A stretch of DNA of 64,000 nucleotides from Lobosporangium transversale (taxonomy: Eukaryota). Both the position numbers and the translations under genes were made by a program. This document shows, piece after piece, positions 1-48,050 of the stretch. The stretch's first letter is position 1, and each line of letters starts with the position of its first letter. The stretch spans positions 434,001 to 498,000 of the forward strand of contig NW_019028980.1 of NCBI RefSeq assembly GCF_002105155.1, given 5' to 3'. Below the pieces are notes generated by a model that saw only the letters and a program-made list of their open reading frames with translations, did not search any database and was not told the origin of the DNA.

Positions 1-650
1 AAGCTGTGCTTCGCATTGCTCAGAGACTTTCTGTAACAGCTTGTACTACCTTGTACCCCCGTGCATTATCATCTAAGATGCTTTCTAAACGAGCCATCGC
101 TGTAAGTGACATCTAATAAGCTGTCTTGCTGCCTGTTCCGTCACAGGCATCCTAGGAACTTCAGGTTCCTCGTGTACTAGTTCCTCTAAAAGAGGCTGTT
201 CTCTAACTTCCCAATGTTCAGGGTAAAAAAAAAATTGGTATGAGGGAGCTCTAACGTCGCTAATGCGATATGCTTGCAGCACATTTTTGCTCGAAAGAAA
301 TCAAGACATGTGGATCCATTGAACTGGTTCGCCTTCCAGTTGACTGTCGCCTCATACAATTTGTCTGGGTCAATGAAAAACTTTACACGAAAAACCTTGC
401 CATTTGTTGTCGGAGACATAAGGACAGCCACAGGGCCCTCTAACTGTTCCTCTCAATATAATCCAAGGCCTTGATTTTGGCCGCCAGTCCTTGCTTCACT
501 CCAGGCGTCATCCTCCCAACACGAACAGTGTGATGGATGCACATATGTTGGTAGTGCGGGATGGCTTTATGGATAAGGATGTATATGACTCGACGCGTCG
601 TTGCCCCTTGCCCTGGAAAAAATGGCTCTTCAAAGTATTATGCCACGACT
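1..650 (-). mobile_element. Degenerate Mutator-like (MULE) transposase, C-terminal fragment with SWIM zinc finger
   Basis: Minus-strand translation gives *SWHNTLKSHFFQGKGQRRV..VIYILIHKAIPHYQHMCIHHTVRVGRMT, the region following the MULE catalytic Glu (E position reads TAG). It is followed by a SWIM-like STCLDFFRAKMCCKHI (ORF 186..431). Several frameshifts, one in the A-run near 226-234. Confidence 0.7.
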
Positions 651-1830
651 AAGTACTTCGTTCTGTCTCTACTTTCTTCGTCTTCACTATCACTATCATC
701 GATAAATCTGGTTCTTTCTAAACCATTATCAAACTCAGCTAGATAGCACCTCTTGAGGTAATCCAAGTCAGACTCTGGTACTAGGTGCACTGTCGCTGCC
801 GTCAATAAACATGAAATAAAAAATAAAACCTCACCAGGATCTCTATAATGCCCGAGATCATTCCCTCATCAAGGGCCTCAGATGAAGATGGTAGGTCCTC
901 TGCAGGAATAATCACTATGAATTGGAGCTGCTGCTTGTAGCAAAGGTGGTAAAAGTACATGCATATAAAGTATTGTTCAAGGAACGCAGAGTGGATAGCG
1001 ACGTGTGGCAGTGTTCAAGTGTTTATACAACTTCATATGAAACCCGAATAGTCGCCTCTGGGGAAATGAAAAAAAAAAAAAAAAACAACGATAACAACTA
1101 TGGTAGGATGGTACGATAGCATTCATACTGTTGCTTACGTTGACAGATGCATTCTGGACGCGTATAGCGCGGAAATGACTCCGTTGAAGTAGAGTCGGTA
1201 CAGTGTCCTACTTATAAAACATTTATATCAAGTCACTCAGAAGCCCTCGGTGCCTGTGTCTACAGTCAAGGTCGAATGTACATCATTTGATCGATGTTTT
1301 GAATGATAAATCATAGAGGAAATGGTCTCCTTAGTAAGTGTAAGGTTTCATAACTTGGTCGGCAAGCATCCGACGAGGGCTACAAACGTACGACATTCGA
1401 GCCTCTGTTTTCTAAATTAACATATGTATGATACTATATCAATATGACTGTTGGAAAGCGCGATCAACAATATGTTCCGTTCAAAAAGGGGTACAACTCT
1501 CAGAGGGCTTGAACATATCACCTGCATTAACCCGCATTAACGGAAGCTACAAGGAATTAATTCCAAAGATTATAGTGATATATATCCTTGACACGCTTCT
1601 CTACCCTTGTTTTAAACGATATATCCATCGCCCAGACTCGAAAAATAAACTTTAGATGTAAGATGGTTAGATGAGCAAAAAGTGTGGCTTTTAAGTTCAA
1701 GTGCGTGGGCACAATCCACCAATCATTTGAAACTGAATGAATTCTTTTCCCACCCACTCGAACGATTGTTGTACCGAGCAACTCTTTTCTTTCTTTCCGC
1801 TCCTACCCCTTCCCCCAGTTTTATCTTAAT

Positions 1831-2505
1831 ATGATTGCCACCACTTCTCAAAAACTGCGCTCCTGGTTCGCATCCATCACTTCACCTTCGGCTACTCACG
1901 CTTCTGGGATGCTCATCCTCGTCGCTATTCTCGCTGCCGTGACTGAGGCTCACGCGGATTCTGTTGCGGCTGGCTCAGAGAGGACCATCTACAGTCATCA
2001 TCATCCCAAGGACTCGTCATCATCTAACCAAGCTTCTGATGCTCATTCAAGGGATCTTCCTTTTAAATCAGAGGAACAAGAGGCAGAGACTAAAGCACTC
2101 AATAATCAGGACATGCTTTACTATGTGGCCCTGGGCATGTTGGTTTCCCAAGGTTTAATTCGCTTGATCACATTTATCTCGAACCGACGCGAGGCTGCAG
2201 CTCGTAAGGAGGACAATGGTTCAGAAAAAAAGTCTCGTAAAGATGACTTGAGTTTAAATGCACTGGAAGATTTGGATGAGGAAACCTTGAAGAGGCGGAG
2301 ACAGGAGCATTTGGCTACTTTGGCTCAACAGGCTCCGTTGTTGGGCAGCGATTCTGAAGATGAGGATTATGAGGAAGGAACTAGCGAGTCTGAATCTGAG
2401 TCTGAGGAGGATATAGATGAGGACGTATCCAATGATGAAGACTTGAATGAACTTCATGATGAGAATACGACTGGGGTCGTGCGCCGCCGCCACAACTGGA
2501 ATTGA
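1831..2505 (+). CDS. Hypothetical protein, 224 aa, two hydrophobic segments and an acidic C-terminus
   Basis: Clean ATG-TGA single-exon ORF after a pyrimidine-rich leader. Hydrophobic GMLILVAILAAV and MLYYVALGMLVSQGLI segments, D/E-rich tail. No recognised family. Confidence 0.65.
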   Translation: MIATTSQKLRSWFASITSPSATHASGMLILVAILAAVTEAHADSVAAGSERTIYSHHHPKDSSSSNQASDAHSRDLPFKSEEQEAETKALNNQDMLYYVALGMLVSQGLIRLITFISNRREAAARKEDNGSEKKSRKDDLSLNALEDLDEETLKRRRQEHLATLAQQAPLLGSDSEDEDYEEGTSESESESEEDIDEDVSNDEDLNELHDENTTGVVRRRHNWN

Positions 2506-2607
2506 GAAGTAAAAACAAAACAAAAAAAAGAAATAATAATAATAATAAAAAAAATAAAAAAAGGAAAAGAAGTCTCAATTCTCATTTCTTTTTACTCTCG
2601 ACAAGAA

Positions 2608-2670
2608 CAAGGATAAGGATAAAGATAAGAGCGAGGACAAAGACAAGGGCAAGGACAAGGGCAAGGACAG
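2608..2670. repeat. Degenerate hexamer tandem repeat (AAGGAC/AAGGGC/AAGGAT)
   Basis: aaggataaggataaagataagagcgaggacaaagacaagggcaaggacaagggcaaggac read directly. Confidence 0.7.
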
Positions 2671-3153
2671 AGGCGCGGGACGCACTTTGAACCACTTCAT
2701 CATCCATCAGCAATGTAGACGGAAATCGAATCAAGTCAACTTTTCTCTCACCAGTAGAACAAGGAGGCGTTTCCTATTCTTTATGTCTTAATCAAGAATT
2801 TTGTAAAATGACAGAAAGTCTGGCCATATCACAAACCCTACAAGAGCGCATAGGATATTCGCTATTATCAACATCACAATAAATTTATTTATTTATTTTT
2901 CATAAACTGTAAGAGGAAGAGAGAGAGTCAATAAAGAGAAAGGTCTGAAAGGGGTATGGAGTAGAGATGGAGTCGCCAGGACAAATAATAATAATAATAA
3001 AACAAGTTCAAAAAAAGGCGTACGTTTTATGCGATAATAAGAGAAGTGAATGGAAAATGAATATAAAAATTATTATACAAATGGAAAAAAAAGTGAATAA
3101 TCAGGCATATCATGGGCAAAAGAAGGAAATACTGAGAGGACGGGAAAAAAACT

Positions 3154-5186
3154 TTACGTAGAAACAACTCCTGTTATATTGGCAAGTGCTCTTTGTTGTT
3201 CCCGCAGTTGCTGCTCTCGTTGTTCACGATGTTGCTGGAGGTGTTGTTTCAAAAGTAATGACGTTCTGCGACCGGTAACTGGACTTCCAATGGCTGCTGG
3301 AGTAGGTGCATGTACTGTAGGTGATCCAGGCCGTGGTGATGAAGAGATGGATGATCGCCCAGATGTAGGGATGGAGGTAGAATAAGATGGTGGAGGTTGC
3401 AGCATCGGTGTCACTAAGGAGCGACAAGATGCCAGACGCGCCTCTAAGGACTTGACACGTCCAACCATGTCCTGCACTGCCTTGACAGGATTGTGATTTG
3501 CCGCAGTTGCTGTAGTTCCTGTAGCTCCAGTAGTGCTAAGACTTTGTCCAGCGAGACGAGCAGAGGAACGCTGTAGTGCACTGTTTGCCAAACGCGCTCT
3601 GAGCGAAGGCATTGCCTCGTAACTGCTTCCAATGGGTGTTCGGAGGGGAGTGGCTGCCTCAGGCAGGGACGATGTGCTCCCATTATACGAACTAAGGCTC
3701 GTAGAAGATCCACTGTTCGCCACAGCTGCACCCATATTTGCCTGATTTGATTTCATCACAGCTAATTCCACATTTGCATCTATTGTTATAAAACATGATA
3801 ATCAATCCGAGTCATATAGTTAGATACCCTAGCTCAAGGAAGTTATATGTCCTTGCAAACATACTGCTAAGATACTGGTGAGTTTCATCGTTACCTCGAA
3901 GCTCATCTTTCAGTCGTTGAACCTCTTCTATCAGCATATTCTTGCTAGCAACCTCGTTCTCCAGCAACACTGTCTTTTCCACTGCTGCGTTGTATTTGAT
4001 CTCTAACTCCTGTAGTGACCATTTGATTGCTCTAAAATGAACAGCAATGCGAAGCAGAACGAATGATAAGTAATAGAAACATCCAGCTAAGACTATTAAT
4101 TCAAATTATAAGTTTACTAAAAGATAGCAGACTGCTATAAAAGATCCATACCTCTCTGTTCTTTCCAAGTCATCATTGTCTTGCTCCAGTGCTCGCTCCT
4201 TTTTAATAAACATTTCTGTCTGCTGCTTCAAAATATCCAGCTGACGAGTGAGTTGATTAATATGAGCATTGGAGTCCTTGACAGATTGATGGTACTTTTC
4301 CTATTTTATGATTGATACGCAGAAAAACATGATCACAAAAAAAAAGTCAGCTGTCAATGTAAAAAGGAGGTAAATGTATTCTTTTTATCTCCGCCGAGTA
4401 CTGTGTGTTTTGTCTCTCCAAGCTCGCACTTTTCTTGTTGGTACACTAGCTAGACATAACAACCTTAAGCAACGTGCTCATTGATACTTGTGTTGTACGA
4501 ACAAGATTGGAGGCATATTGGTTTAATTACCTTCCATTCATCGATTTCCTGCCTCATAGCATCATTCCGGATTCGGATCTCATTATATCGGCGCTCTGTA
4601 GACTCTACTTCTTTTTCAAGCTCCTCTTCTAGTTCTCTGGATGACTGCTGAAATTCTTCCAGCTGGTATTTTGTATCGGCCAATTCTTCTTCCATCTTCT
4701 TGGCATGAGTCTTATAGTATTCCAGTTCTTCTTCCACATTGGTGAAGCTTAATCAACGATAAGGAGACAGAAAGAAATAGTTAGTGAGTTGTTGTTGCAG
4801 GTCATCGCTATCATTGTCTCGAAGACATGAGCCCTTTTTTTGTATATGTGTTTGCCGAAGTGTGGACGAATAAAGACTGGAGGGTGTTTGGAGGGAAAAC
4901 GAAGATAAAACAGGTGATATGAAAGTAGCAATAGCAAGCAGGAGATAAACAATAATATCGGCTGCATGTCCGTTCACAATGACATCGACTCCACAAATAG
5001 ACAGAGGAAGGATCCTTTCCCCTTGTGAGACAGCAACGGACAACTACAACTGACGACACAAAGGCATGCCAATGTGTGAAGGTAATGATTATCACCACCA
5101 TTCGAAGAAAAAAAAAAGTCATGAGGTGAGAGAGAAGGAATATTGAAGCAACCAAGTCGGGACAGGAACGAACCTATACACCTCAT
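3154..5186 (-). CDS. nudE: NudE/NDEL1 family dynein-LIS1 regulator (coiled coil)
   Basis: Signature EEELEYYK...LEEFQQSSRELEEELEKE and C-terminal MVGRVKSLEARLASCRS. Exons about 5186-5182 (ATGAG, tentative), 4747-4531, 4300-4152, 4031-3895, 3779-3154, with GT-AG introns. Confidence 0.9.
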
Positions 5187-7947: not shown

Positions 7948-8464
<517 letters not shown>

Positions 8465-8687
8465 GACTCATCGAATACATTATTTTGCATCAACGATCAA
8501 TCCATTCTATCATAATAAAGACATTTTTTTTTTTCTTTTTATTATTTTGCATTTTGCTTTCATGTGTCTATTTCCGTTCATACGAGTTATTCCTTTGCAG
8601 CCCATTTTAGGAAGTGGCGTCAAATAGCCGAATTAAAATCTGATCTTGCCTCTTGTTTCTCATTATACACCAAAATCATTCATTGTA

Positions 8688-11642
8688 ATGGTAAAGTCAT
8701 GGAGTAAGGGCGTTGAGCACATTTGATGAATCTTGCCAACGAAACCGGAAAACGCGCACCAACCATTTATGCCTGAACAAAAAAAAAAAAAAAAAAAAAA
8801 AATTAGGCTTTATCGAACTCCAGTAGTTGATTCCTATGCTTATACTTTTGGGTACTTAGACGACACGGACACTCGCTGGACAACTCTTGCGTTCCGCCAC
8901 TGCAAGCGGCCGCCACAGAAATGGAGCAGCGACAAGCTATACCTCTCCTATACTGGCGCCAATATTTGCGATCAGGAATTTTCGCCGCTCGATCCACAAA
9001 AGATTTGGAGTTCCTTCAAGTTCAGTTGCCTCATTCTCGACAGTCTCTACCATACAGAGACGGGCATATTCGTCTTCACACTATGGACAGCCTACGTGGA
9101 TGACACATCCTCACCTGATGAAGGAAGGTGAAAGTACGATCTAATGCTTAGTTAGCCGCTGACATACCGATCATTGTTGATTTAGAAAAAAGAAGGACTG
9201 TTTCATTGATACCGTCCACTGACACCTTTGCAACTAATATTACTCATGATTAGTCACACCGGGAATGAGCGCTAACGAATATGAGCTTCGAAGAACAACT
9301 CTAATGCAGAGTCTACCTAAGAACAGTATCGTCATCTCGACCAGCCACAAGACTCGATATATGAGTAATAATATCTTGTACGATTGTCTCGATTTCTTGA
9401 CACCAGAGCATTTCTGTTTTTCAAGACTTGTGAATTATAATATTATAATATCAAAGGATAGGAGTTAATTCATATTACTTGACTATTAGTTATCCGTTCC
9501 ATCAGCACACTGATTTCTTTTATCTATGTGGTAAGGACCCATCATCTGGAAATCTTTCCTTCCGACTAGTTTATGTATCAAACTGAGATGATATTAACTA
9601 GTGTTTGCGAAATACTTAGGATTTAACGAACCGGATTCTGCACTCATATTGGGTAAGGATAGGATCTCATGAAATACTGGAAAAAAAACTAAAAAAAAAA
9701 AAAAAGTGAGTCTAAGTGATGACCACAACACTGTATGATAGAAAAAAACGACTCATCACGCGGATACAAGATGACCATGTTCGTGGCGCCAAAGAATGCC
9801 AATATTGAGATGTGGGAAGGTGCAAGAACGGGTCTTGATGGCGCAAAAGAAATATTTGGAGCAGATGAGGTAATGGTGCAAAACTGAAAAAGGACTATTG
9901 AGGACGAAGCATTGGCTCATCGGGAGCACCAAGTGATGTTATGTTTATACCATTCATATCATTCATGCCATTATCTTTGTATTCATGCTATGCAGGCAAT
10001 CGATGCTAATTTGTTCAGATATAGGATTGCTGACATCGCGAGCCGATATGAGAATGTGTACTTTGACTACCCTACCCCATCCATGTTCATGCCATTGGAT
10101 ATTGCCAAGAAACTACATAACAAACCAGGTATAGAAGGGTCAATTGCATATTTTGCAGGATAAAATATGGATGAAATAGTATAGGACCACGTGTCTATCT
10201 ACCTACCCACCTTTATTTATCTCCTTTCCCATCTTTTCTGTTTACTCGGCTTCATACTTTCAAGCAGTATCGTCGTTTTTTTCAGGCTTGAAGCATACCT
10301 TCAGAACGATCGCTAAAAAACCTTCGCCATCTACTCTCACCTTCACTTCTCGTCCACATGACAAAATCAACACTATTGCAGACTCAGACCCCATGTCCAC
10401 AACTAAGAGTTTATCCCCACTTATTCAAGAACTGCGAGTGATCAAGAGCGAAGCTGAGATCAAAATTATGCGAGAGGCGGGCGAAATTAGCGGCAAAGCT
10501 TTTATTGAGGTGAGAACCCAAAACACATACAAGCACTGTATAAAAAATACATTAAAAAAAAAAAAGTATATTAATTTGAATTTTTGGTACGTTTGTAGAC
10601 CATGAAGTTTACAAACCCACAGAGATTTGAGCATCAGATCTATGCCAAGTTTGACTATGAATGCAGGATGCGAGGGTCGCAAATGATGGCTTATGTCCCA
10701 GTAGTTGCCGGAGGTTCGAACGCGCTAACGATGCATTATGTCAATAATGACCAACCTTTACATAACGGGGATTTGATTCTGATGGATGCTGGTGGAGAGT
10801 TGAATGGATATGCAAGCGATATCACTCGGACATGGCCCATCAATGGGAAGTTTACACAGGCACAAAAGGAACTATATGAAGTAGTACTGCATGCAAATAA
10901 GGAGTGTATCAAGGTAGGGGAGGGAGAAAAAAAAAATCGAGGGCCTGAAAATCTTTGAACGGGTCTCTCATCTCTTGGTGGTTATGAGGGGAACAAGAAT
11001 TTGAGTTCATAAGATCGTTAATATGAATTTGCCTTACTGCAGCTATGTACCGAGAATAGCGGTATGTCATTAAACCAGATCCATGATGTATCTATGCGAT
11101 TGACAAAAGAAGGGCTTTCGAGCCTAGGTATCAAGCCTTTAGCTCATGTAGGTTTGAAAATGAAGCGCTAGTGAACGACTGGAACCATTAGTAAGCCTAA
11201 ACACTCCACCAGCTTCGTGGTCTCATTAACTGTTTGTGGTTCTCAGGATGTGGATAGAAGATTGTATCCTCACCATGTCGGACATTACCTCGGCCTGGAT
11301 GTCCATGACACCGGAGACATATCGCGATCTAGAGCACTCAAGGAGGGCATGGTCATTACCATTGGTAAAGTCCTCTAGTTTAATCGACTATATATTATTG
11401 TACATTTATGGCTGTAACTCAATTACTCAACTGCATAATGTTTGATCAATTTTTTTATGAATATAATAGAGCCGGGTCTTTATATCCCTCGGGATCCTGC
11501 ATACCCAGAGAAATATCAGGGTATTGGTATCCGTATCGAGGACAATGTTGCCATTGGCAAGACTGTTCCTCATGTCCTCAGTGTCACAGCCCCTAAAGAG
11601 ATTGTCGATGTTGAGTATTGTTGTGCATCAGGAAAGGACTAA
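8688..11642 (+). CDS. ICP55: Mitochondrial intermediate cleaving peptidase 55 (M24B Xaa-Pro aminopeptidase family), multi-exon
   Basis: R/S-rich presequence, [17 protein letters not shown], metal-ligand motifs [43 protein letters not shown]. First coding exon inferred as ATG alone (8688-8690), next exon from 8860; stop TAA 11640-11642. Confidence 0.92.
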
Positions 11643-11833: not shown

Positions 11834-13492
11834 TTACTTTCTCCAATTTCCTTGACGTCCTTGATTTCCTTTGTTATCCTTGGTCTTTTTGGTATTCTTC
11901 GTCTCCTCATTATCCTTGGCTTCCTTGCTATTCTTGATTTTCATGTCATCCTTGGGGTTTTCGGCCTCCTTGGGAGGTTGGCCACAACGATCTTTGCCAT
12001 AACCAACCTTAACGGTTGCATATTCGGATTTAAGGGGGATATTTTTAACAGCCTTTACGGCCGCGAGGACGTCTGTAAAGCTGACAAATCCACAGTTTTT
12101 ACTTGGCACAACGTTGATAAGCTCAATTTCTCCATATTCCGAAAAATCGGCGCGAAGTTTTTCTTCATCTGCAATGCCTTCAATACCGCCCAAATACACA
12201 TTGCGGCACGCTCCTTGTCGGAACGCTTGAATCACTTCGAGCGGGAGATTCAAGGCCTTTGGACCCCAGCCGAGCTTTGGTTTCTGGTTTTTGATCTTGA
12301 AACCTCCCTTAGAAACAGTATCGTAAAACATTTGAGCTGCCTTGGGATCAACAAACGTCACAAATGCCGAATACTTTTTAGATAAATATCTGATCTTGCT
12401 TAGGATGCCCCCACGAATTGAATTGCATATATCGGCACATGTTGTTTCTGGTGCAAGTTTTCCCAAATATATTGTCCGTTTGCCTTCTGCAATCAGAGTA
12501 CTAAAAGGTACCATGCATTTCTGATGGTCTAGTTCAGTAGTGGTTATACCATCGAGAGTTGGAAGCTGTATAGGTGTCGCGAATTTTGCACATCGATCTC
12601 TGCCATAACTAATTTCCTTTCCAGCGTACCGTGATTGAAGTGGTAACTGGGTGACAGCCTTGATAGCATTATTGATGTGAGTAAAGTGCGCGAAAGCAAT
12701 GTTTTTCTCGCGCACAATCTTAACTTCTTCTACCGCACCAAAGGTCAACAAATCCTTGTGGATGATTTCTTCTGTAAAACTTGAGTCCAATCGGCCGATA
12801 AATACATTTCGAGTGGCTCCTTCATTTTGAACAGCCTTTTGAATGTTCGGACTCAATATCGATGGGGTCCCCCAGCCAACTTTGAGCTCTCGACCTTTGA
12901 GTCGTAATGGTGTTTTGAAAGAGGCCTTACGATGAAATACTTGAGCCGCATCCGCTTCAATAAATGTGATGAAGGCACAGTGCTTTTCAGGAATCAATTT
13001 TGCATTTTCTAAATTGCCTGTTCGGATCAGGTCCAAGACCTCATGGAGAGTGGATTCCTCAGGGATTTTGCCGAGGTAGATGGTGCGGAGTGGGAGAGGT
13101 GTGGTAGTAGGTGGAAGGGGATTTTTTTCAGTCTCAGATAGTTGCGGTCGATTTGGATTGTCTCCAAGACCAAATGATGGATATGATGCAAAGTACGTCA
13201 CACAGCTTGGATCATAGTATAAAGGACATTGTGAGTCTGAATATGTTGAATATGGTTGATATGGTTGATATGGTTGATATGGTTGGTATGGCTGATATAG
13301 TGATTGTGGTATAGGCCATTGATAAGTTACCGCTGACGATCCAGAGCTATTACTGGTATTTTGATGAACATCATTGGTCGCTACACTAGAAACAGTGGCC
13401 ACAGGCGCATCATCATCTGAAGCGGCTTGCTCGATCCGGGGGACCTTTTTGCTACTAGTTTGGCTGTCTTCTGCCTCTACAGCTCGCTTCAT
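11834..13492 (-). CDS. Four-RRM RNA-binding protein, MRN1 (S. cerevisiae)/Nrd1 (S. pombe) family; intronless
   Basis: Paired RRM pattern RTIYLGKIP...KHCAFITF...KVGWG / GATRNVFIG...AFAHF...YGRDRC occurs twice (second pair RTIYLGKL.../GACRNVYLG...YGKDRC). First ATG at 13492 (MKRAVEAEDS); the ORF-track start at 13570 is non-ATG. Confidence 0.85.
   Translation of the reverse strand: MKRAVEAEDSQTSSKKVPRIEQAASDDDAPVATVSSVATNDVHQNTSNSSGSSAVTYQWPIPQSLYQPYQPYQPYQPYQPYSTYSDSQCPLYYDPSCVTYFASYPSFGLGDNPNRPQLSETEKNPLPPTTTPLPLRTIYLGKIPEESTLHEVLDLIRTGNLENAKLIPEKHCAFITFIEADAAQVFHRKASFKTPLRLKGRELKVGWGTPSILSPNIQKAVQNEGATRNVFIGRLDSSFTEEIIHKDLLTFGAVEEVKIVREKNIAFAHFTHINNAIKAVTQLPLQSRYAGKEISYGRDRCAKFATPIQLPTLDGITTTELDHQKCMVPFSTLIAEGKRTIYLGKLAPETTCADICNSIRGGILSKIRYLSKKYSAFVTFVDPKAAQMFYDTVSKGGFKIKNQKPKLGWGPKALNLPLEVIQAFRQGACRNVYLGGIEGIADEEKLRADFSEYGEIELINVVPSKNCGFVSFTDVLAAVKAVKNIPLKSEYATVKVGYGKDRCGQPPKEAENPKDDMKIKNSKEAKDNEETKNTKKTKDNKGNQGRQGNWRK
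13248..13296. repeat. Coding 9-mer tandem repeat encoding (YQP)n
   Basis: (tatggttga)n on the plus strand; YQPYQPYQPYQPYQPY in the RRM protein. Confidence 0.85.
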
Positions 13493-14491
13493 AGCTGCTA
13501 GTTGCAATATTAGGCAGTAGGCAAGGAAAAGACTACAAAGAACAGACTTTTTTTGAGGGAAGGTGAACAAAATGAAAGCACACTTAGCCTATAATCTCAT
13601 GGCTCAATGAATCCTCTTTGCAGAATTTAAGGAATGAAAAGGATCCGATGGATTATGAGACTTGTCACCCTACCTTCTCTTGTAAGAAGATTGAAGCACC
13701 ATGTTTGTTTAAGGGCACGTTCCAGGCTCATTAATCGGGTCACCTGAGCAGAATAGATGTATTTGGTGGCAAACCGAAACAACACTAATTTTTTTATGTT
13801 GAATCTATACAAAAAGAAAACCAACTCATTACTGTCTGGGGAATTATCTGGAGCAGGCAGCCCAGGGCGCACCGCCAGGAGGTGAGCTGGTTGCGCGCCC
13901 CAACTGGTAGCTGCAGCATCCGAGAGAAGCTCTACCCCTGTGCCCCTTCAAAGCAGATTTCAGCAAGTTTTCAACACCACTCTCTACCTATCATAACGCT
14001 ACTCGGACTAGTGAGTCTTGCCAATCAATTTAGGGAAACATACTGAATAGTGATCCTAAGGCCCCTGCTGGTAGCGCGGAGCGGGAGTCTAGATAGAGAT
14101 GAAAGAGAGGTCCTTTTATACATTCTCAGAGCATAGTGACTTGTTTTCTTTTCTTTTGTCATCAACTCTTAACGGTATTGAGTCATTGTGGGATCTTTTT
14201 TCGTATGAAAAGTGCTTCTTAGGTGCTGGCAATCCTTGACACTCGTGGTACTTTGAAACATCTATAAGTATCAATATCGCCGGTCTATGCTCTCTTGCAA
14301 TATAGTTTTAATAGAGTTTGCTTGTTTGTTTTGACAAGGCAGAAAAGAGTGGAGCTGCCACCTTAAAAAAAAAGATCGTGAGAAAGATTGCCTCACAAGA
14401 TACTTCACAGTATCACCACCATTACCTTGCTGTTATATGTGTTGTGCTCGCTAATCCGTCAGATAACAAGCCTAGGACTTCTTTGTAGATG

Positions 14492-15240: not shown

Positions 15241-15489
15241 CCATGCATATGAAGTGGGATGCCAATAGGACACCTGTTTCTACAGAGCAGGTCAGTATCC
15301 AAAAATGTTGCACTTCGAGAACACGCATATTAGGGGTGATGCACAAGTTGCTTTCAGCCATCAGTTCTTGCTATACAAGTGTACCAGCCGAGAATGGTTC
15401 TCAATAAAGATACCCATGTGCAAATCGCGTTAAAATACTTTTTTCTCTTCATTTAAGAGTATGCACTTCGATTCTATCCCAATTATTGG

Positions 15490-18030
15490 TCAGTACATTG
15501 CAAGGGAGGCGGCAGTCGCTATGTGCTTGCTGGGAACTCCTTTACTACTTTCAAAGGACCCTAGGCCGACGACAAGCACTCCTTTTTCCCCGAGCATCTT
15601 CAACACTCGCTGTACCGCGTAATCGAACGTAGCTCGTTGAGCCTTTCGTAGGTCCCATTTTTTTTTTCAGGCACCATCTGGGCTCGTAGAACTCTTGAAG
15701 CACATCCAAATTCTTTGATCCTATCTGTGTCTGGGACTCCTCGTTCATCCATTGAAAGTACTCATTGTACGTATCCCTTCCAAACACAGGGATGGCGCTC
15801 TCAACCTCAATCATTCCTTTTTCACGCTTCCTTTTGTTCAACAGGTGATGGAAGCGGAGGACGGTGAGGTACAAGAACCTGCTTCTCACCTTTACTGTTT
15901 GCCGCAAGTTAGAGTTGTGAGGATCCAGGGAGGAAAACGTAAGGGCGTTAACAATACCAGGATCGCATCCGACGATAGTTGTGCTGTTTGCGGATGGTAC
16001 CGCCCTGGTTTGTTGAATGTGAGCTCTTCCAGTTTATGTTTGCATAGTCTTCATCTGTCAGGTCTTCACCGGCTGCCTTTGAACACGTCGTGTTGAGAAA
16101 TCCCTGAGAAAGCTCCAGTTCTTGGCTGGGGTCTTCTTCATCTACGTCAGACTGCTGCTGTCTCTTCGTCTGGGTTGTGTCATAGGCAAGTAGATTCAGA
16201 ACTAGACCGTTGGTAGAAATCGTCCCTTTGAGTTTGAACCGAGTTAGCTCTTTGTCCTGTGACTGCAGGGATACTTTGTCTCGATATCCAAGAACCATGC
16301 GATCGCCTCCAATGTCACAAAAGAGAGCCTGAATCAAAACCCCTTTTGTTCCCTGTACACACTCAAACATTGCAGTCTTGGAAGGATTGTCGAGAGGCAG
16401 AATACGCTCCAGTAGCTGCTTGGTATCTTCGTTCGCCCAGAGGATGTCAACTAGGGCGTGTTCAGACAGATACACATACCCGGGTGACCAGGAGGACGTA
16501 GGAAAGTCTGAGTATTTTTTCACTTTTTTGTTCTCCCGCAAAAAAAACTCAATGTCGCTCATATCTTCGTTTGTTTTCTCGACATCAAACTAGAAAAAAA
16601 AAAAAAAAAAAAAAAAAAGAGTCTGAATAAAGAGAATTTAATTGCAGAATATACATGAAAATACCCTACACAAGCTATACCATTGGGTTCCTGTAGTGCT
16701 GCTTTAATGATGTCTGTACTTGGCCCATTAGTAGCTCTGACGCTCTTGGAAATGAGATCTTTTTGGGATCAAAGCCTTGCACGTCCCCAATGTGATGTCT
16801 ATTTCCTTTATTGGGGAAAGTTCAGTGGTGGCCTTGAAATGTTCATAAGCGAGGAGGTAATGGGGCGTTTCTACCGCCTTTCCTTGTTTTTTTGCCCTCG
16901 CGTAAGCTGAATTGGGGCCACCTTGACCACTTAAAAGAAGGGTGGCGAGACGGAAGGAATAGTCATTGCTATCCAAGACCTCGTCCAGTGCCTTTTTCCT
17001 CGACCTTGCTGCCCCTGGTAACCGCATGATCCTCTCAATGTCCAAGGCAGTCGCCCAGTATGCATAGCGGCGTAGTCGGTTGAGGACAACAACTGCCCCT
17101 CGGATCTGGTTTGCAATACTATCCTTTTCATCTGCGTCCAGTCCGCCTTTCCTTGCCATGGAGGCCTTAAGGGATCCAATTGTTAAGGCCTTGATAGGGT
17201 GCTTACTGCTGTAGCTGTGATCAACCTTCGTAGCATCCTTCAAGTTCCTAATTGGTGCACCTTCTTTTTTAGCCCTGAGGGGCTTCTTGCCTTTGTGCTT
17301 CCGCTTTTGTTTTTTCTGTTGCTTCTTTTTTGCCTTTTTCCGACGTGGTGGATGCTTAAGGCCCGGTCTATCGTTCTGACGGCAGTTACTGATATCAACT
17401 GTGCACCCATTCAATATGCTCGCCTTGTCAGAAAAGATGGGCCGGAACTGGTTCCTATGTGACCCTTTCGCTATATAGAATGATGGTGTGTCTCTACATT
17501 ATCCAAGAAAGGGACTAACGATTAGTATTGGGGACGTTTGGTTTCGAGGTCAAAACTATAGCTTGAGCTTTCTTACGTTCTGCTGCGCTGCGTTCGCCTT
17601 TGCTGAGCCATTCTATGGCGAAGATCCTTTCCATTGAGTAGAAGCTGCTTGAAGTTATCGAACTCATTGTTCGATGGTAACGCTTGGGCCGACGTTTGAT
17701 GGCCGGAAGTAAAAATGCGGAGAGCTACTCTGAAACGGCCTTCTTCAGAGGCTGCGTTCCTTCCCAACACCTTACTAGCTTTCCTTAGGTAGTCCCGAAG
17801 CATTTTATTGTAGTTCTCGTTCCACGCAACCTTTCGAATTAATCGAAGATTATTAACCGGGCCTAACGTCTCGAGGTTCCTTAAGTAGTCATTACCTGCG
17901 ATGGTACAGAATAACACCAGATGCGCGTGTGATGGCAGTCTTAGTGCTTGGATAGCGTTGTCTACATCGTAAACCCCAAACTTCCGTCTACGGTGGGGAA
18001 GGTTGACTCTCAGATTCCGACATCAATGGC
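15490..18030 (-). pseudogene. Decayed gene encoding a FEN1/XPG-like H3TH segment fused to a Fanzor1/TnpB-like RuvC nuclease body
   Basis: Reconstructed: ..LRLPSHAHLVLFCTIAGNDYLRNLETLGPVNN (H3TH) | intron 17576-17494 | basic linker and helical region ..QVQTSLKQHYRNPM | intron 16680-16590 | FPTSSWSPGYVYLSEHAL..FKLKGTISTNGLVLNLLAYD.. (frameshift) TTIVGCDPG (Asp 15964-15962)..EFY...KKK (A-run frameshift near 15660) WDLRKAQRATFDYAVQRVLKML..VLVVGLGSF..GVPSKH. The PIN core and RuvC C-terminus appear deleted. Confidence 0.7.
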
Positions 18031-19530: not shown

Positions 19531-21093
19531 ATGTTGCCTTCAATTGCATCCAGCAGAGCCATGCTGCTCTCGCAAGTAAGCCAGCTGATGGAAACCTTAG
19601 TTGAATGCAGAAAAAAAAAAAAAGAAAGTTACAATTCAAGAATTGATGTACAGAATCACTGAATAGCCCGTGACTAAAACGTTTTTGGTGGTCGCGGCTG
19701 GTTGCTTGCCTAACCAATATATAGCCCTTATTAAGCATGCGGACAATGGCTACAAAGACTGTTATAATTAAATCTACGGGGACCGCTGCAACTGCTGCGA
19801 AATCAGCATCCACCTATGCCTCCAAAGCCAACTCTGCCAGCCGTGTCTCTTCCTCGAAGCCAGCTTCAGCCTACAGCAAGAGCGACTTTTCTACTACTGG
19901 TGCAACAGCTTTTTCTTCATCCCCAGTTCCTAAAGCTGTCACAACTCCATCTTCATTTGCAACATCCTCTGGATCTGGATATTCGGAAGAGGATGATTCA
20001 GAGATCAATGGCTCCTCTAAAGTTGGTGGCGGAAATAGTCAAGTAGCTAACGAGGCCTTTTCCAGTAATGGTCCAGTGTTAAAGGACGCCGCCATCGGAG
20101 AGCGCGGAGTAGATGAGACTCAGGATTGGACACGCTCTTTTGCAGGAATGGCCGTTGAACCCTTTGAAAAGGAAGTTGCTGAGTTGTTAATGAAGCCGTT
20201 GGATCCTGAAGATATCGAAATCAAGCCAGGTATTTATTTATTTATTTTATTTTATTTTTTTTCTTTTAGTTTTTTAGCCCTACGATATTCAGAAGCTAAA
20301 GACATGTATGTTGATGGGAAGAAATCTTAGTAATGCGAACTATTTCTTCTTCAAACACTAGACGGAATTCTTTACCTTCCAGAAATTAAATATCGTAGAA
20401 TTTTGAACAAGGCATTTGGGCCTGGAGGTACGGTACAACTGACGGTTAATCCTGTGTAGTAATGGTTTGCATAAGACTTCACATTCTAACCCATTTTGTT
20501 ATCTCGCTTTGTTGTTGCGTTTTAGGATGGGGATTGGCACCTAGAAGTGAACATTCTATCTCTCCTAAGACCATTTCACGAGAATACGCTCTGATTTGTA
20601 GAGGTCGTTTCGTTAGTACGGCTCGTGGTGAACAGGATTATTTTGACCCTAACAATATTGCTACAGCGACAGAAGGGTGCAAATCAAATGCACTGATGCG
20701 ATGCTGCAAAGATCTGGGTGTCGCTTCGGAACTTTGGTAAGTGTCAATATGATTCAGGGCGTCATTGGTGTTCTAATCGCAACCACCCATGACGTTTTAG
20801 TTGATTAATAATGAAATGTTTGGGTCGTGTTCGTACTTCTACCTTCAAGGGATCCATCATTTGTCCGAAAATTTAAGAGGCAATACTGCGAAGAGGCTTT
20901 TGCAGAGCATGTCATTACGAAGCGCAAGAAGAAATTGTGGAAACGCAAGGACCAGCCAGATTTTGGTATGTGTTCATCATCTGAAAGGATCACGAGAAAC
21001 AACTGCAGGTATTTCAGTTCGACTAATCGGTGTACTTTGTCTGCACTATTATTATTACTTTTAATAGAATATCCTTATGCTAAGACAAAGTGA
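19531..21093 (+). CDS. MGM101: Mitochondrial genome maintenance protein Mgm101 (Rad52-like), 6 exons
   Basis: [37 protein letters not shown]...REYAL...[34 protein letters not shown]. Presequence [21 protein letters not shown] from exon 19531-19575 spliced to 19725; stop TGA 21091-21093. Confidence 0.95.
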
Positions 21094-21657
21094 AAGCATA
21101 TAATACATTAGGACAAAGGGTTATACACGAATATACGCAATAAAAATCCTTTTGGTAATTTGTAGTGCAAGCCAAAATTTAAAAGTGTTTGAAAATCGAA
21201 TTAATTAACAGAAGATGTTTGTCATGCCATAAAGCAGACCACCGAAGTATACGCTTATATTTCAAATATCATTCTCAATTGAAGTGGCAAACATTGATCA
21301 GGCACAATCTGTTCAATGTTGTCTAAACAGGAAAACTTCAAATCCAAGTCAGTCATTTCAAGGTACACATTTTGGCACGCCGCCTTATGACTATGAGCCC
21401 TTAGAAAGTCATTCATAACTTGAAAGGTTCTCTCAAATATGGCAACATGAAGGTCATAGTTTGGCCTGTACATCGTGAGGATGAAGCCTTTCTGTTAGAC
21501 AATTCAGTTCCTTATCAACAACCGTTTCAAAATGCGGATCTCGGAGTAGCATGAACATATATTTAATCATGTGATATAGTTTTGAGGTGGACTTCAAAAA
21601 TGAGATCAAAGCGATGTTGGTCTACATCACTCCATCACCCCGCGCTACTGTACAATC

Positions 21658-47218: not shown

Positions 47219-48050
47219 GCTTTGGTTATGGTCGAGGTTTCAAACAGAATAGAGAAGAGGAAGAAGAACATCGGTAAGTTCTATTTCGGCAACGCCGCCA
47301 AGTATATATATTGACAATTACAATACCATCAAGTACCGCCGACGGTCCCTAGTGTGATTCTCCACCGTCGCGCTCCAATGTAATGCCAGTTTTTATATTA
47401 AAAACATCATGCTCGTTCACACCGAATTTTAAAAAAATTGGACTGATGCCACATGAAATATCATGCAAGAATTCACACGATGATTTTTTTTTTTTTTTTT
47501 TTTTTTTTATCACTCAACATCTCTCTCATTAGTAGCTCCATCAATATTTCCACATCCATATTAATATCGCCCCTTAGCAATGGGAATGGAGGACCTCTGG
47601 CCTTTTCTTCTAAAGACAGGCTACGAGACAACTCCCCACTGCCATTCTTCAATCTGCTCCACCTCTAATCCTTCCTATCCTTTCAATTTACGGCGCTCTC
47701 ATAAGATTCGATGTCCTAGGAACTTTTATCCCATAATTTGAAACGCATACTCCAATCATCCCCTTGATACAGTCCACAAGATCATGGAAAGGGGGCAGGG
47801 AAGTATGGAGCACCATTAAACCTTATCCTGTATATCGACGGTGGTGCCTCTGAGAAAAAAGACATATCCACATATATCGAGAGGAAGCGCGAGCCAAGGC
47901 ATTGCACATGGTAAATTAAAAGGTGCAGCTTGGTCATGGTTTGCTTAAACGTGTTATTGCTACAAAAAAGTGATATTTAAGGGACTATCTAACGCCACAA
48001 TTAAAGGACACATCGCACCTTGTCCTTTTCGTGTTTCAAAGCATCAAAAC

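Follow-up and report, generated by a model that had tools for sequence, protein, structure and literature searches.

Positions 18001-15523 (minus strand) of the window, the whole 64,000-nucleotide stretch of Lobosporangium transversale DNA analyzed here, are an internal, frameshifted fragment of a multicopy gene family of the Mortierellaceae. Intact members of this family are predicted, from DNA-level splicing and gene models, to be single-chain fusions of a FEN1/EXO1-like PIN nuclease domain with a Fanzor1 nuclease; a preliminary description of the fragment had anticipated such relatives, and single-chain proteins with both catalytic sets were indeed found. We are highly confident in the combined picture of two folds, both catalytic sets, a junction intron that is in frame at the DNA level, many near-identical copies, and a broken copy in the window. 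The window copy itself is dead, as had been proposed: the PIN core and the last exon are missing and the frame has changed four times, and the copy is useful merely as a marker of the family.

The fragment begins with the C-terminal third of the FEN1/EXO1-like domain (17577..18001, minus strand, as are all features of the fragment), comprising the H3TH with its GNDY motif (17896-17885) and the terminal helices. This piece is 92% identical to residues 206-346 of the family protein P0031, matches positions 205-342 of the family PIN profile (iE 3e-42), and gives a Rad2 match by phmmer at E 0.06; the first ~204 codons of the domain are not in the window, which removes six of the seven acidic catalytic residues. 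Intron 1 (17494..17576; 83 nt, GT-AG, phase 2), with a CTAAT 32 nt upstream of its acceptor, connects the PIN and Fanzor halves without loss of frame. Among 57 GT-AG pairs of 60-130 nt around this junction, two leave the conserved motifs on either side in a single open frame, and both use the donor at 17576. Exon 2 (16681..17493), with one frame change near 16787, encodes a K/R-rich linker and the N-terminal (REC-side) part of the Fanzor half, and is 93% identical to P0032 and 79-80% identical to P0023. It is followed by intron 2 (16590..16680; 91 nt, GT-AG, phase 0) and by exon 3 (15523..16589), which has up to 98% identity to L. transversale models and carries, around an acidic insert, the TNG motif (TISTNG, 16223-16206), the RuvC-I DPG (GCDPG, 15970-15956, with the Asp at 15964-15962), the WDLRKAQ helix (from ~15657), and the conserved Gly (15561-15559) of GLGSF (15567-15553), ending with PSKH at 15523. 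All of the core motifs named in the preliminary description of the minus-strand frames lie where it placed them, and the two in-frame introns that it proposed are canonical and keep the frame (17576-17494 and 16680-16590). The similarity is not due to chance: the pieces align colinearly with protein models, at 79-97% identity.

The 3′ break (15400..15522) leaves the copy without its last exon, which would carry the RuvC-II Glu, the C4 zinc finger, and the RuvC-III Asp, and without the region where a guide RNA is expected. Homology to the family starts at 18001 and is firm down to 15523, with a weak extension to 15502; the family profiles find no match below 15493 in the window, and tblastn with four last-exon queries finds no last exon there. 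A permissive tblastn of the whole window with the missing PIN core (one query) and the last exon (four queries) gave nothing better than E 0.85. The further remnants once suspected, AIDVG near 18020 and NMRV..SKCNIF at 15300-15335, are not supported: they fall outside the homologous segment, and neither place is among the four best tblastn matches per query. A Pfam search of seven window frames returned nothing below E 0.016. Three frameshifts had been counted; comparison with close relatives gives four frame changes, near 16787, 16026, and 16000 and in an A-run near 15666. About nine codons are lost at the change near 16026, which lies ~25 nt from that near 16000. The A-run change (15675-15666, minus strand) is seemingly common to P0002, P0011, and P0022, with an identical out-of-frame peptide; its occurrence in several L. 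transversale models seems to reflect either inheritance or recurrent slippage.

The fragment sits between two host genes, one for a multi-RRM RNA-binding protein (11834-13588, minus strand) and a spliced MGM101 (19725-21100, plus strand). Elsewhere in the window, 47580-47910 (plus strand) holds the frameshifted start of a second, divergent PIN subfamily (39% identity to P0055, E 2e-10); P0055 resembles the type of the metagenomic locus L004, which means that remains of two such families are present in the window.

When exon 3 was searched against proteins of 316-2,000 aa, 30 matches were returned, 23 of them from L. transversale at 66-98% identity and the other seven at 37-49%, six of these named Mortierella or Gamsiella. 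The L. transversale gene models nearest to the window copy number at least 36 in one annotation, a count in which one of 23 clusters has 15 members, one of them from another isolate. The H3TH piece found 34 matches, the best being P0031, the PIN domain of the same family (92%); many of the family proteins found in this way end at ~342-348 aa. Most L. transversale models are one half only, and one locus is annotated as two successive models, one per half (P0031 and P0084); P0078, P0022, and P0023 contain both PIN and Fanzor pieces but have deletions. No full-length L. transversale model was present among those examined, the longest being P0078 at 694 aa.

Intact copies bearing both the PIN domain and RuvC were found in Mortierella alpina models and in L004. 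The M. alpina models P0025 (1,186 aa), P0064 (1,121 aa), and P0066, P0093, P0094, and P0095 (1,307-1,544 aa) span both family profiles and have six of six tested motifs. The last four are 95-98% identical to one another and lie on four different contigs of one annotation, which points to recent multiplication. In the Atlas the family forms a 58-member cluster whose representative is 1,312 aa long. Of 52 pattern matches in metagenomes, eight were confirmed as loci of the family, and three of these (L001, L004, and L007) reach the PIN domain. Scans of viral contigs and of prokaryote genomes, both of which need exact short motifs, gave 22 and nine pattern matches, respectively, with no relatives in either. 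Truncated and internally deleted copies are common in the family. L007 contains a decayed full-length PIN-Fanzor gene (192-4330) and, at 8200-10130, scrambled pieces of at least one further family element. One M. alpina model of 3,300 aa (P0076) has a damaged PIN-Fanzor part (residues 1-1178) joined to a host zf-C3H1/HAT-repeat protein, a joining that is probably a prediction artifact.

The N-terminal part, described earlier as a FEN1/XPG H3TH, proved in relatives to have the FEN1/EXO1/XPG fold and residues, as judged by fold and profile searches. In the AlphaFold model of a fusion protein, P0064 (mean pLDDT 71, pTM 0.41), both halves match the folds expected (FEN1 at E 1.5e-9 and SpuFz1 at E 2.9e-9). 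Residues 2-315 of this model contain a FEN-like PIN core with helical arch and H3TH, of which the window retains the H3TH part only, and superpose on human EXO1 (Z 22.4, rmsd 3.1, 282 residues) and on FEN1 (Z 21.3, rmsd 3.3, 274 residues); the two scores are ~1 Z apart and about tied, and do not decide the subfamily. The sequence leans toward FEN1: the family profile aligns end to end with human FEN1 1-260 at E 1.5e-7, versus E 0.009 for EXO1. Pfam XPG_I or XPG_I_2 matches occur in seven of 12 proteins (E 3e-4 to 0.03), all below the cut-off.

Ten FEN positions (G2, D34, D86, K93, R100, E158, E160, D179, D181, and D233, numbered from the profile-to-FEN1 alignment) are kept in 15 of the 16 rows that span the domain, with Asp in place of E160 in the family; three of 19 rows were left out of this count as N-terminal partials. 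We take these to be the catalytic or key positions, among them the seven acidic metal-binding residues and the gateway Lys and Arg. Members of the FEN family cleave RNA or DNA 5′ flaps where these meet a duplex, and by family resemblance the FEN half is probably an active structure-specific 5′ nuclease. It resembles FEN1, EXO1, and XPG (Rad2) in the whole catalytic domain, in the superposition of helical arch and H3TH (Z 20-22), and in the retention of seven acidic and two basic residues, and differs from them in its low identity (~13-17%), in falling below the Pfam XPG cut-offs, and in its fusion to Fanzor in a repeated element.

In comparisons against the Atlas and a viral fold library, whose E-values are not comparable with each other, the clusters nearest to P0064 residues 1-345 (score 0.95) are Nucleocytoviricota XPG/FEN1-like proteins, and giant-virus FEN1/XPG-like and poxvirus G5 proteins account for many of the best viral fold matches, in a list that also includes viral proteins resembling Fanzor. 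A viral origin of the FEN domain is possible and is mentioned only as a lead.

The C-terminal half, previously assigned to Fanzor1, is confirmed as such at the level of motifs and models. Foldseek with a model of the Fanzor part (P0068, pLDDT 63) placed SpuFz1, PpFz1, and GtFz1 at ranks 1-7 (E 4e-8 to 2e-5), with Cas12j, Cas12f, TnpB, and Fz2 behind the Fz1 chains. A wide structure search (VIA) of the Fanzor part returned Cas12/TnpB/Fanzor RuvC folds throughout its top rows; Cas12j, Cas12f, and TnpB scored Z 11-14 over 173-231 residues, versus Z 10.4 for GtFz1 over 411, the longest alignment, and SpuFz1 was not among the best 50 matches. A phmmer comparison of P0025 with solved structures gave acidic low-complexity matches only.

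According to Yoon 2023 (PMC10711439), Fanzor1 is marked by a RuvC-I DPG and by a relocated RuvC-II Glu that stands about six residues before a C4 zinc finger, followed by RD; the motif set of Bao and Jurka 2013 (PMC3627910) includes a conserved Gly, G500. The signatures as defined by these authors are present in the family. RuvC-I is of the D-P-G type in seven of nine aligned long proteins (and GCDPG in the window), with DLG in L004 and EPG in P0067. The GLGSF Gly, the counterpart of G500, pairs in alignment with that of SpuFz1 MGDW; the earlier description had read it as standing in place of the canonical RuvC-II Glu. HE(Y/F)(F/Y)TS, four Cys, and RD are found in six of nine long relatives and are absent from the window copy, which has lost the last exon. 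The set D-G-E-C4-RD is complete in five of nine aligned long proteins, the others having D-to-E (P0067) or being truncated or damaged. The WED-domain motif of the family is TNG, not TDG. The family resembles Fanzor1 (SpuFz1, PpFz1, and GtFz1) in fold, DPG, conserved Gly, relocated Glu before the C4 zinc finger, and RD, as well as in the T(D/N)G motif, multicopy state, and lack of a transposase in the coding sequence. It differs in size (~1,120-1,540 aa versus 600-700 aa), in its three or four introns, and in an extra N-terminal FEN1/EXO1 domain of ~345 aa with intact catalytic residues, followed by a basic linker.

The Fanzor half of these proteins is already known. An L. transversale member of the family, ORZ22893.1, is tabulated as FZ1 in supplementary file 3 of Saito 2023 (PMC10432273), and a PIN-like start was recognized by eye in 17 of 39 Mortierella rows inspected, of 84, in that table (14 full and three partial) and in at least eight of 27 inspected, of 96, in Table S2 of Yoon (PMC10711439); judging by these rows, the fusion is widespread and unlabeled in the published tables. 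The extra nuclease domain is not mentioned in the searched main texts of PMC10711439, PMC10432273, Jiang (PMC10530073, with two supplements), and PMC3627910, nor in the searched text of Xu (PMC11423790), a review (PMC13565253), a preprint (10.64898/2026.06.03.729735), a PIN classification (PMC5499597), or PMC10799480. The literature searched contains, among the matches listed, no description of a Fanzor-XPG fusion; it gave nothing for TnpB with Mortierella, and for TnpB with a PIN domain a paper on bacterial defense. The supposed novelty of the fusion stands as far as these main texts go and does not extend to the Fanzor half, which is in published tables. What appears to be new is a second, apparently active nuclease domain on Fanzor1.

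That the two halves form one chain is indicated chiefly by the intron between them. At all three loci where it can be read (the window, L001, and L004), which represent divergent subfamilies, it is a phase-2 GT-AG intron of 79-109 nt that occupies the same position and keeps the frame; this makes an annotation artifact unlikely. It spans 242-350 in L001 and starts at 1383 in L004. The second intron also lies at the same place, in phase 0, in all three (1177-1262 in L001 and 2552-2644 in L004). Spliced L001 reads through the junction with 691 stop-free residues, and removal of four GT-AG introns from L004 gives a stop-free reading of 1,185-1,188 aa with both catalytic sets and 34% identity to P0064; L007 has both halves in the same order around a junction too decayed for reading. 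In a set of 97 family proteins enriched by PIN-based searches, both parts are present in 14, including all 12 of at least 800 aa. Identities of the two halves rise together (rho 0.69 over 36 pairs of nine proteins, the pairs not being independent), and the halves appear to have evolved together. The stretch between them (P0064 residues 348-456) is 33% K+R and of low confidence, with pLDDT below 50 at 348-397 and 417-456, and the model shows no fixed arrangement of the halves.

Alternatively, each half could be a gene of its own, the two lying side by side in one element, and the single-chain proteins could be artifacts of gene prediction. This would suit the many database proteins that stop at ~342-348 aa and the separate annotation of P0031 and P0084. 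We consider it very unlikely, since, besides the conserved in-frame intron and the long proteins with both parts, the short PIN proteins end at the start of the junction intron, the unspliced PIN frame meets a stop inside it, the exon that follows has no start codon ahead of the conserved FY[IV]A motif, and the C-terminal end of P0031 is an out-of-frame reading of the linker. More improbable still is a host-domesticated repair or defense gene in place of a selfish element. Introns and catalytic residues are conserved across genera, as such a gene would have them, but one species has dozens of near-identical copies that are broken, another has young multicopy sets, and the window copy is debris between the RRM gene and MGM101, all of which argues otherwise.

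For the role of the fusion we favor, as having somewhat better than an even chance of being right, a tethered FEN1/EXO1-type nuclease that would trim 5′ strands after a guided Fanzor1 cut, with the element copied back at the break. The Fanzor half, directed by an RNA derived from the element's 3′ end, would act like SpuFz1 and break both DNA strands; the linker, ~110 residues long, flexible, and basic, would let the FEN domain reach the cut ends and resect them to 3′ overhangs; and repair would shift away from end-joining, toward homologous recombination in which a sister or homolog that bears the element is the partner. Transposition to new sites would be supplied in trans by a transposase. 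Fanzor1 is an RNA-guided DNA cutter, and break-driven copying ("cut-and-copy") by TnpB and Fanzor is proposed in the Discussion of Saito 2023 (PMC10432273), where the biological role of Fanzor cleavage is stated as unknown. A fusion of Cas9 with human EXO1 is reported to have raised HDR and lowered NHEJ (PMC11107001). Engineered exonuclease fusions to MmeFz2 are described as lowering indel rates (PMC12923547); we count the fewer indels against the proposed trimming, with the reservation that indels are not a measure of homologous repair. Also counting against it are the lean of the sequence toward FEN1, whose typical substrate is a flap and not a break end, and the presence in Mortierella, among the published-table rows inspected, of Fanzor1 clades that have no PIN domain.

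The same fusion might instead clip 5′ flaps of transposition intermediates during Helitron-like or gap-repair copying, with Fanzor only marking or opening the site. This is rather unlikely in our estimation, although FEN1 is the protein of highest profile similarity, truncated and internally deleted copies abound, and some Fanzor1 genes lie, according to PMC3627910, on Helitron2 or on unclassified elements that have no terminal repeats, are 5′-truncated, and show variable target duplications; the loci yielded neither a Rep/helicase nor any other transposase, and the near-tie of the EXO1 and FEN1 structure scores is not decisive. Action of the FEN domain on RNA or on the R-loop, either in 5′ maturation of the guide RNA or in removal of the displaced strand to free the post-cleavage complex, is less likely again. 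RNA flaps are among the substrates that FEN-family enzymes cut, and the position of Fanzor guide RNAs at or overlapping the gene 3′ end (Saito, PMC10432273) implies 5′ processing; however, the Fanzor1 proteins studied so far, of 600-700 aa, function with no domain of this kind, and the H3TH and gateway residues for threading duplex DNA are kept.

The retention of a seemingly active resection-type nuclease, fused to Fanzor across divergent fungal subfamilies, is a strong hint that the Fanzor break serves homologous repair, an idea that becomes testable with one point mutant. The family would also be a natural counterpart of the engineered nuclease-exonuclease fusions for precise editing; the Cas9-EXO1 and MmeFz2-exonuclease proteins likewise tether a 5′ nuclease to an RNA-guided cutter and differ in being man-made. 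Intact copies for experiments, recently multiplied ones included, are P0066, P0093-P0095, P0025, P0064, and L004. A bolder and doubtful extension is an autonomous, transposase-free element with a FEN domain from a giant virus, in which one protein would both cut under RNA guidance and resect, and host recombination would copy the element into vacated sites and into imperfectly matched new ones; if true, this would amount to a novel mode of mobility and would provide a single-chain "cut and resect" editor ready for use.

Neither the surroundings of the window fragment nor the short flanks of L004 and L007 showed terminal repeats; candidates for terminal inverted repeats or target duplications in the short flanks were rejected as A/T runs and chance 7-12-mers. 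No transposase, including Rep/helicase, was identified in the short flanks of the family loci. In all five loci that extend to the stop codon, the last conserved codons are followed by a short hairpin; the window lacks this region. Its strength is not above background (fractions 0.05, 0.22, 0.25, 0.52, and 0.17; z -1.9 to +1.5, with a search window chosen after the sequences were inspected), and RNAalifold on four loci gave no consensus pair; as a guide-RNA lead the hairpin is not significant. A few bases 3′ of this hairpin, at ~4275 in L004 and ~985 in L005, stands TTGTAAGT, resembling either a splice donor within the 3′ untranslated region or a mark of the element end.
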